A stretch of 62,670 nucleotides of DNA, filler included, from Basidioascus undulatus (GCA_000826855.1; 12 parts of 12 records of this genome joined end to end with filler, not necessarily neighbours in it); one strand, 5' to 3'. Counted from the first letter of the whole stretch, positions 58,340 through 59,401 are shown. Notes: a model not told the origin generated them from the sequence alone. Numbers and translations: made by a program.

Positions 58340-59401
58340 CCCTCCCTCTCTCTTTCCTCCAGCGTTCCGCCCCGCCCCGCGCACTCCCCCCTAGACGCCC
58401 AAACGATCCACCTCCTCCCCTCGCTGCACTCCTCGCACTCCCCGTCCCCTCGAAAAGGACCCACCGCGCCTCCGACCCTCTCCGCGCGTGCCCCCCCGGC
58501 CAGTCCCCACGCGCCCGCGTCCTCCTCCTCCCTCCCGGGACACCCGCTCCTAAAACCAGGCCCCCCCTCCCATCCGCCACGCACTCCGCGCCCCCACCTT
58601 TGATAATCCCAACCTAACCCTAAGTCCGTACCCCCCGGTGCGCGCGAAGCGGCGTCACAACAGGAGCACGGGGGAGAGGGACGTGAGCGGGTGTGTGGGA
58701 GTGGGGGGACAGAGGAGGCGGTACGCTTGCCGGAAAGCTCGGACCTGGGTGGGCGTCTCCGACGCGGAGATGCCGCCCAAGGGGGCCGCATGCGATCCCC
58801 CCGCTTCCCTTGTCCCCCTTCTTCCCCACCCCTGACGTCGGCGAGCGAGCTCCCACTCCCCGCCCGATCCCGCATCGGCCCGGCACTCCTCCCCCACACA
58901 CTCAGACGACCACCCACGTCGTCGCGTGGTCTCTCCCCCACGCGCTCCTCCCCCACCCTCCACCCAGACGTCCCACCGCCGCGCGCCCACCGCAGTCCGC
59001 CGCGCGCCGCCCCCCGCACCCTGCAGCCGGGCGGGGCCGTCCGGCGCGATGGCGGTCCCGTTTGAGTGCGCGCTGCCCCCCTTCCTTGTCCCAGACCACC
59101 CGGGCTGCTCTGCGCGCGCGGAAGGGGCCTCCCTCCCCACCAAGGAGGGTTGGGCGGGCCCACGGAGGAGGTCGCTGGGCCGGGAGGTCCGATGGGGCGG
59201 AAGTGGTTCGGGGCCTCGGGTCTAGTGCGCATGGAGTGCGCGGGGAGGAAGAGCGCTGGTGATGGGCCTGTGTTAGGCGGTCGTGCGCCTTACGGGCAGG
59301 CGGTCCGGCTCCCCTTTTCTTTTCCTCCTCTTCTCTCTTTCCCCCATGCCCCCCGCCCATCGCTCACCAAAGCCCACCGCGCTCCGCTTCCTCCCCCTGC
59401 T
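58340..59401 (+). ncRNA. Candidate telomerase RNA (ends approximate; 3' part may be cut by contig end)
   Basis: Template-like CCCAACCTAACCCTAA at 58608-58623, complementary to TTAGGG-TTAGG-TTGGG; many nested long-range complementary segments (58359-58423 with 59190-59259; 58636-58721 with 58801-58992); no recognisable protein in any frame. Confidence 0.75.

Follow-up and report, generated by a model that had tools for sequence, protein, structure and literature searches.

In the DNA window analyzed here (62,670 bases), a 16-nucleotide (nt) motif is probably a telomerase RNA template. The organism would be a relative of Wallemia, and the RNA would be transcribed divergently from the kinetochore gene NUF2. 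The template function, and each mechanistic step set out below, we infer. More tentatively, as something possible rather than probable, it would be the first telomerase RNA of the Wallemia lineage, a stand-alone unit head-to-head with NUF2, whose single 16-nt template writes three telomere units by register switching. The window is a chain of small contigs from one draft assembly, mostly of about 3.17 kilobases (kb), with runs of N and the linker TTAATTAATTAA at the joints. Three of its features are listed first.

58608..58623, plus strand: putative telomerase RNA template 5'-CCCAACCUAACCCUAA-3' (exact match, unique in the window outside the telomere, predicted unpaired).
55993..56131, plus strand: telomere tract at the 3' end of another contig (20 TTAGG, 5 TTGGG and 2 TTAGGG units, then a final TT).
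58373..59401, probably plus strand: transcribed non-coding stretch, the candidate RNA body (contig of sequencing run X3, no coding signal, fold z score).

Two distinct short contigs carry the telomere (52962-56131) and the candidate (56232-59401), so that their adjacency has no meaning. The first-pass annotation of this DNA had called them neighbours by concatenation alone, and the N runs and TTAATTAATTAA linker between them bear this out. Motif and telomere presumably come from one organism, as both contigs belong to one assembly. The telomere tract parses without remainder into 27 units and the final TT, with no fourth unit type; TTAGGG, TTAGG and TTGGG are its sole units, as that annotation held, and TTAGGG is, as it also read, the first unit at the junction with non-telomeric sequence. 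Every variant unit is followed by TTAGG (7/7; TTGGG in 5/5 cases, TTAGGG in 2/2).

In its DNA form, CCCAACCTAACCCTAA, the motif has a single non-telomeric copy in the window, at 58608-58623 on the plus strand. Reverse-complemented, it reads exactly TTAGGG-TTAGG-TTGGG, one unit of each telomere kind, and the template read 3' to 5' gives those three units in that order. The match is confirmed as first described. So, within the window, is the uniqueness outside telomeres, since the three further matches with up to two mismatches all lie in the telomere tract. Complementarity to at least about 1.5 telomere repeats characterizes a telomerase RNA, and the 16 nt supply it. At the same tolerance of two mismatches, shuffling the window 100 times gave a mean of 0.02 matches to the 16-mer, and no shuffle (0/100) reached four. 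Given the base composition, the number of 16-mers built of TTAGG, TTGGG and TTAGGG units expected by chance is 0.003 for a window of this size and about 1.6 for 35 megabases (Mb). The match is genuine and improbable within the window; one per genome could be chance.

The locus is non-coding, as it had first appeared to be. Six frames of at least 40 amino acids overlap 58000-59401, and one of them is long (350 amino acids, 58183-59232, minus strand). Its G+C is flat across codon positions (0.68/0.71/0.70). In real exons, those of Nuf2 and the homocitrate synthase (HCS) gene of the last contig, G+C is 0.86-0.95 at third and 0.34-0.51 at second positions. Codon-phase periodicity does not exceed 0.15 over 58032-59291, compared with up to 0.52 in Nuf2 exons. 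Pfam gave no family for the three longest frames of the locus, and no homolog of the 350-residue frame was found among the 8,000 scored candidates from a library of 5.8 billion proteins. On the flat G+C, the absence of a Pfam family and the absence of a homolog, this frame was ruled out as coding. Stops are few in every frame (1-5 in all six across the region), as expected at 72% G+C. A scan of the window found no transfer RNA genes.

Three public sequencing runs were compared with the candidate contig; all are guessed to be DNA and none is recorded as RNA. A contig of 1,505 nt in run X3 equals Nuf2 minus five introns. Four of its splice joints have CT..AC ends, which are GT..AG on the gene strand, and the fifth is taken from the piece table; because this contig is spliced at GT..AG sites, X3 behaves as complementary DNA (cDNA). 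X3 also has an unspliced contig of 1,076 nt, colinear and gapless with 3 differing letters. It covers 58373-59401, extends 47 nt beyond the window contig end at 59401 and has a depth of 32.1 compared with 25.5 for Nuf2. The motif lies 235 nt from its left end. These data point to a non-coding transcript, unspliced and no shorter than 1,076 nt, that contains the motif. Between Nuf2 and this contig X3 gives no cover over 58056-58372 (depth 0 in bins spanning 58140-58351), a gap whose right edge is blurred by a masked low-complexity repeat at 58324-58363. Run X2 covers the whole candidate contig at an even depth of 13.4; it is probably the source of the assembly and therefore not independent support. 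X3 and X2 come from different studies (P1 and P2, respectively). Run X1 is without cover over most of the locus, and such a hole proves nothing. At position 58997 both X2 and X3 have G where the window has C, likely an assembly error or a variant inside the candidate RNA.

Contigs give neither the strand, the ends nor the level of an RNA. The first-pass annotation had proposed a plus-strand RNA of about 1 kb or longer. The length agrees with the 1,076-nt contig of this transcriptome-like run; the plus sense we infer from an asymmetry of predicted fold and from a pyrimidine bias. On the plus strand, 58402-59401 folds at -467.6 kcal/mol, compared with -436.7 ± 7.6 kcal/mol for 20 dinucleotide shuffles (z -4.06, 0/20 as stable), while the minus strand of the locus gives z -0.61 (6/20 shuffles as stable) and ten 1,000-nt control strand-windows from other parts of the sequence range from z -1.46 to +2.16. 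The plus strand is pyrimidine-rich (0.56-0.76 in 9 of 11 bins of 100 nt), and sense-strand pyrimidine reaches 0.81 in the Nuf2 5' untranslated region and 0.70 in the 100 nt upstream of the HCS gene, which lends weak support to the plus sense. A transcript of minus sense, either a non-coding RNA resembling the G-rich telomere strand or a messenger RNA (mRNA) for the 350-residue frame, would suit the strand-blind contigs and the open frame that spans the locus. We consider it highly improbable. The frame combines its flat codon G+C and lack of family and homolog with a composition of 20% G, 17% R and 4% W, all six frames hold just 1-5 stops at this G+C, the last 190 nt of the frame fall outside the RNA contig, and the minus strand shows no excess fold.

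The fold of the plus strand, read as RNA, is consistent with a telomerase RNA in how it presents the motif. By prediction the locus is structured (the z score of -4.06 agrees with the first description), and we favour a structured plus-strand RNA. Windows of 400 nt on this strand give z -3.5 for 58602-59001 and z -3.0 for 58802-59201; because the shorter windows are mixed, much of the fold signal would come from long-range pairs. Six such helices, of 9, 8, 17, 22, 7 and 7 pairs, are predicted to enclose the template domain, the first 190 nt pairing with 59124-59241. Within the enclosed domain, 58565-58635, motif included, is open in the minimum-energy fold. In the ensemble the motif has a mean unpaired probability of 0.88, compared with 0.40 for the whole RNA; with an A+T content of 63% over 58599-58625 (the motif and its 5' linker), compared with 26% and 29% in the 200-nt flanks, it is the A/T-richer unpaired island that the first pass had described. 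Only two stretches of at least 10 nt exceed an unpaired probability of 0.8, the motif and a U/C-rich tract, so that the motif is predicted to be accessible as the template of a telomerase RNA is.

58379..58564, plus strand: 5' arm of the long-range helices enclosing the template domain (predicted by the minimum-energy fold, pairs with 59124-59241).
59124..59241, plus strand: 3' arm of the enclosing helices (minimum-energy fold, prediction).
58680..58839, plus strand: long hairpin downstream of the template, with an outer stem of 36 pairs (predicted fold).
59310..59347, plus strand: U/C-rich tract, predicted single-stranded (unpaired probability above 0.8).

Rfam matched mir-1224 at 58703-58819, scoring 23 bits where the gathering score is 105. 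This identity was rejected, as the weak match reflects the hairpin at 58680-58839 alone.

These data bear directly on the explanation that we take most seriously beside a telomerase RNA, namely an ordinary long non-coding RNA (for instance a divergent NUF2 promoter transcript), or the untranslated region of a gene beyond the contig, that happens to hold interstitial telomere-like sequence. The sequence could match by chance, be what remains of a decayed telomere, or stem from a short tract that telomerase added in the repair of a chromosome break. Short internal telomere motifs are common in fungi: published counts are 73-265 (CCCTAA)2 and 2-21 (CCCTAA)3+ per assembly in P. oryzae (PMC8381367), and 782 loci with a putative template in U. 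maydis (PMC9564094). The chance expectation of about 1.6 such 16-mers per 35 Mb, a second telomere-like site in the window (GTTAGGTTAGG, an 11-mer at 54932-54942), and the fact that the motif is the sole telomerase RNA hallmark found speak for this explanation as well. A repair tract would, moreover, start with TTAGGG, like the actual healed end. Against it, the flanks of the motif hold no degenerate telomere repeats, and a random three-unit sample of a telomere in which 20/27 units are TTAGG would mostly be TTAGG alone. It also needs a coincidence: a non-coding transcript that is unspliced and 1 kb or longer, an outlying fold on the matching strand, and a motif exposed in that fold. We regard it as unlikely, though it deserves real weight.

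If the motif is instead a telomerase template, its RNA would be a non-coding, highly structured plus-strand transcript of at least 1.08 kb that starts at or shortly before 58373, runs on past 59401 and shares a head-to-head promoter with NUF2. Two further features enter the proposed mechanism.

58611..58619, plus strand: proposed core template AACCUAACC, in which CCAA would serve for alignment and the five bases that follow would be copied (based on the sequence and the 20/27 TTAGG units).
58599..58607, plus strand: linker UUUGAUAAU, rich in A/U and adjoining the motif on its 5' side (unpaired probability 0.81); the boundary region in the model.

Numbered from the 3' end, template positions 1-16 would specify T-T-A-G-G-G-T-T-A-G-G-T-T-G-G-G. 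In the main cycle, a telomere end ...GGTT would pair with CCAA (positions 5-8) of 5'-AACCUAACC-3'; copying of positions 9-13 would add AGGTT, and the end would re-align, yielding the TTAGG repeats that make up 20/27 units. In about one round in five, copying would run three bases on into the 5' CCC, to position 16, and make TTGGG. TTAGG would then have to come next, because GGG could re-pair only with the 3' CCC (positions 4-6). TTAGGG would arise when an end ...TTAGG, or a non-telomeric end, sits on the 3' CCCUAA (positions 1-5), and would again be followed by TTAGG. The telomere tract at 55993-56131 contains no GGGA read-through product, and copying would therefore never pass position 16. 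The model forbids TTGGG-TTGGG, TTAGGG-TTGGG and TTAGGG-TTAGGG, and it allows GGGATTAT read-through rarely. This register-switching model is coherent and fits the single telomere, which tests it weakly. If true, the template would combine an inner cycle of five bases with a 5' boundary that leaks and an ancestral CCCUAA kept at the 3' end, and would represent a TTAGGG-to-TTAGG transition frozen midway.

A number of results weigh against a telomerase RNA, or against parts of this mechanism. The uniqueness of the motif holds for one 62.7-kb window, where the runs of this genome total about 34-35 Mb of contigs; across such a genome the chance 16-mers counted above are expected, telomere relics come in addition, and the second telomere-like site already lies within the same window. 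The orders forbidden by the model, two of which the first pass had named, are absent from the one assembled telomere, with low power: the chance that seven variants among 27 units are all non-adjacent is P = 0.13. It would be unusual for a main cycle to be primed by just 4 base pairs within a motif of 16 nt. The type of run X3 is unrecorded (guessed DNA), its cDNA nature being read from the one spliced contig, and the contig data fit an RNA of either strand. Among the 400-nt windows, 59002-59401 gives z +1.94, and both windows that hold the motif give only -0.91 and -0.95.

The other hallmarks of a telomerase RNA also count on this side. Rfam models of telomerase RNA are clade-specific. At gathering score Rfam returned nothing across the whole window, and at E up to 10 it gave four chance-level matches over 57900-62670 and no telomerase family. 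No pseudoknot was identified in 58373-59401, with folding programs that cannot predict pseudoknots. The minimal P6.1 pattern, a 4-base-pair stem with a 5-nt NUNGN loop (PMC3592445), occurs in two hairpins on the plus strand (59211 and 59227) compared with 0.9 expected (P = 0.22), and in four on the opposite strand. No Sm-like AAUUUUU is present in 58373-59401, the 3' end of the RNA lying outside the window; no run of U exceeds 4 nt, the longest lying at 59315 and 59320, some 700 nt beyond the motif. As a boundary candidate, 58587-58591 may pair with 58642-58646, at a probability of only about 0.25. Past the motif the contig continues for just 778 nt. Since the distal domain of the U. maydis RNA lies at nt 1,046-1,135 of 1,291 nt (PMC9564094), the distal elements may lie beyond the contig end. 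Apart from the template, then, no hallmark of the family (P6/P6.1, pseudoknot or Sm site) was identified in 58373-59401.

Metagenome contigs added no relatives. A search with Nuf2 exon 1 gave 148 pattern matches, of which 0 were confirmed as relatives. The 16-mer itself occurs at no fewer than 112 loci there, many amid degenerate telomere-like repeats, and none of the loci listed is a relative, because the best blastn matches to 58100-59401 span 18-33 nt, the motif alone. The absence of an ortholog among these contigs, and with it of covariation or template tracking, likewise weighs against the proposal.

The candidate fits known basidiomycete telomerase RNAs in size and layout: the U. maydis RNA (UmTER) has 1,291 nt, and telomerase RNAs of Ustilaginales have 675-2,470 nt (PMC9564094; PMC12506658). 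UmTER (gene ter1) and its homologs in Ustilaginales, Urocystidales and Violaceomycetales are, like the candidate, basidiomycete long non-coding RNAs, UmTER being of about 1.3 kb. Both carry a short telomere-complementary template a few hundred nt from the 5' end (PMC9564094; PMC10035886). In UmTER, long-range helices close a template/pseudoknot domain (PMC9564094); in the candidate, such helices are predicted to close the template domain, in which no pseudoknot was identified. UmTER is described as cut from the 3' untranslated region of the Emi1 mRNA, whereas the candidate has no upstream gene on the same strand and an apparent promoter shared with NUF2. The UmTER template, as reported, has 9-11 nt and is a pure TTAGGG complement; that of the candidate has 16 nt and would encode three unit types. 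UmTER further has a P6.1-like helix and an AAU5-6 Sm-like site in the published account, neither of which was found in the 1,029 nt of the candidate.

The putative Malassezia telomerase RNA (MgTER) was found, like the candidate, via a template motif in a non-coding transcribed gap (PMC12506658). Point changes in or beside the template explain the repeat of each species, and alternative registers are invoked, as we do for the candidate (PMC12506658). MgTER is shorter (about 480-500 nt), lies downstream of NDK1 and has a conserved AAUUUUU, whereas the candidate is longer and lacks AAUUUUU in the part examined; MgTER possibly derives from NDK1 read-through (PMC12506658). It is backed, in the same source, by 18 strains whose templates track their telomeres, compared with one genome for the candidate (PMC12506658). 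The lepidopteran telomerase RNA resembles the candidate, as modelled, in templating a five-base TTAGG; it is described as very small and without the usual domains, and it is unrelated to the candidate in lineage and size (PMC11892584). Interstitial telomeric sequences and relics share with the motif a short internal run of telomere-like units (PMC8381367). They differ in being mostly subterminal, in telomere orientation and amid degenerate repeats, while the motif is isolated, stands beside a housekeeping gene and is predicted to be exposed in a folded transcript (PMC8381367).

Heterogeneous repeats from one template, as in the model for the candidate, have a counterpart in fission-yeast TER1. 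Its template boundary is reportedly flexible, with heterogeneous repeats said to arise from occasional copying past the boundary and re-alignment. TER1 differs in its repeat, in its lineage and in an experimentally defined boundary helix, where the best local helix of the candidate has a probability of about 0.25.

The statement of the first pass that few basidiomycete telomerase RNAs are characterized, with U. maydis as the main case, is dated; putative or proven ones have since been described for Ustilaginales and two allied orders, and a putative one for Malassezia, the sole basidiomycete groups covered in the papers found. The telomerase RNA of Kwoniella was still termed unidentified in 2024 (PMC11185503). 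Our search of the literature on a Wallemia telomerase RNA or telomeric repeat found nothing on such an RNA. Telomerase RNAs diverge too fast for homology searches, and each new lineage therefore has to be found afresh. If true, the candidate would give a deep basidiomycete branch for tracing routes of biogenesis, whether mRNA-derived or stand-alone. An ancestral six-base and a derived five-base unit would, moreover, stand together in one natural template, making a change of telomere repeat directly testable.

The telomere contig invites another explanation of the motif, as part of a telomere-targeting retroelement whose RNA bears telomere-complementary sequence. Endonuclease-deficient Penelope-like elements are of this kind, telomere-targeting and with telomere-complementary sequence in their RNA. 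The first-pass annotation had placed the telomere on the break of a long interspersed element (LINE), which we could not confirm. A frame at 55540-56008 (minus strand) abuts the telomere and resembles the C-terminal part of a reverse transcriptase by eye, a label that is unconfirmed; Pfam gave no match, and so no reverse transcriptase, for three frames of this contig. This reverse-transcriptase-like frame adjoining the telomere on the other contig is what favours the retroelement. The candidate locus matches only low-complexity stretches elsewhere in the window, lies beside a housekeeping gene at the even depth of 13.4 in the source run and holds no reverse transcriptase frame, and we judge a retroelement origin exceedingly improbable.

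Within the telomere tract, both TTAGGG units are among the proximal seven units; all five TTGGG units are among the distal sixteen, denser towards the end. About 1 kb inside the same contig, TTAG-TTAGG-TTAGG stands at 54929-54950 in telomere orientation. It is probably the relic of an earlier chromosome end; read on the minus strand, it would formally count as a template-like site of 11 nt as well.

On the other side of the candidate RNA lie its divergent neighbour and the sequence between them.

56232..58055, minus strand: Nuf2 (kinetochore) gene, divergent neighbour with its ATG at 57978, running off the contig start (spliced X3 contig, exon translations).
58199..58250, no strand: A/T-rich island, putative shared bidirectional promoter, midway between the Nuf2 mRNA 5' end at 58055 and the RNA contig start at 58373.

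Nuf2 also places the genome. For its exon 2, the closest named relatives are Wallemia Nuf2 proteins at 66-71% identity, and the next named is Malassezia at 35%. The HCS exon matches unnamed proteins at 94% and many phyla at 90-92%, and is uninformative on lineage because it is too conserved. The genome has many short introns and a high G+C; as Wallemia genomes are G+C-poor, these features suggest an ally of Wallemia and not a member of that genus.

The closeness of NUF2 suggests one more role for the motif, that of a regulatory DNA site. Myb-type telomere-repeat factors (Tbf1/Teb1/Tay1-like) could bind the telomere-like motif in double-stranded DNA and act on NUF2 or on the neighbouring transcript, a hypothetical role that we rate as very unlikely. 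The distance of about 550 base pairs from the Nuf2 mRNA 5' end, divergent and promoter-proximal, would suit such a site. The motif nevertheless lies in transcribed sequence, 235 nt into the RNA contig and outside the gap at 58056-58372, and neither its TTGGG and TTAGG variants nor the strand-specific fold and accessibility would be needed.

Sense-strand pyrimidine in Nuf2 introns (e.g. 57009-57175) is 0.79-0.85 in 4/9 and 0.44-0.67 in the others. CT-rich low-complexity tracts, in Nuf2 introns and at 58290-58370, seem to break short-read contigs. Runs X1 and X2 each have, beside the matching contig, another one in which three stretches of Nuf2 exon (within 56287-57557) recur with 16, 30 and 3 differences in 169, 163 and 37 nt, respectively, and with different intron-sized inserts. 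This suggests a diverged second copy; it could be a paralog, belong to another haplotype or subgenome, or come from a related organism that was also in the sample, and a second allele of the telomerase RNA could therefore exist. In annotations of Wallemia, proteins of 562-623 amino acids join Nuf2 to a ubiquitin-conjugating domain of UBC9 type (PF00179); because the two are annotated as fused, UBC9 is probably the same-strand neighbour of Nuf2 in Wallemia.

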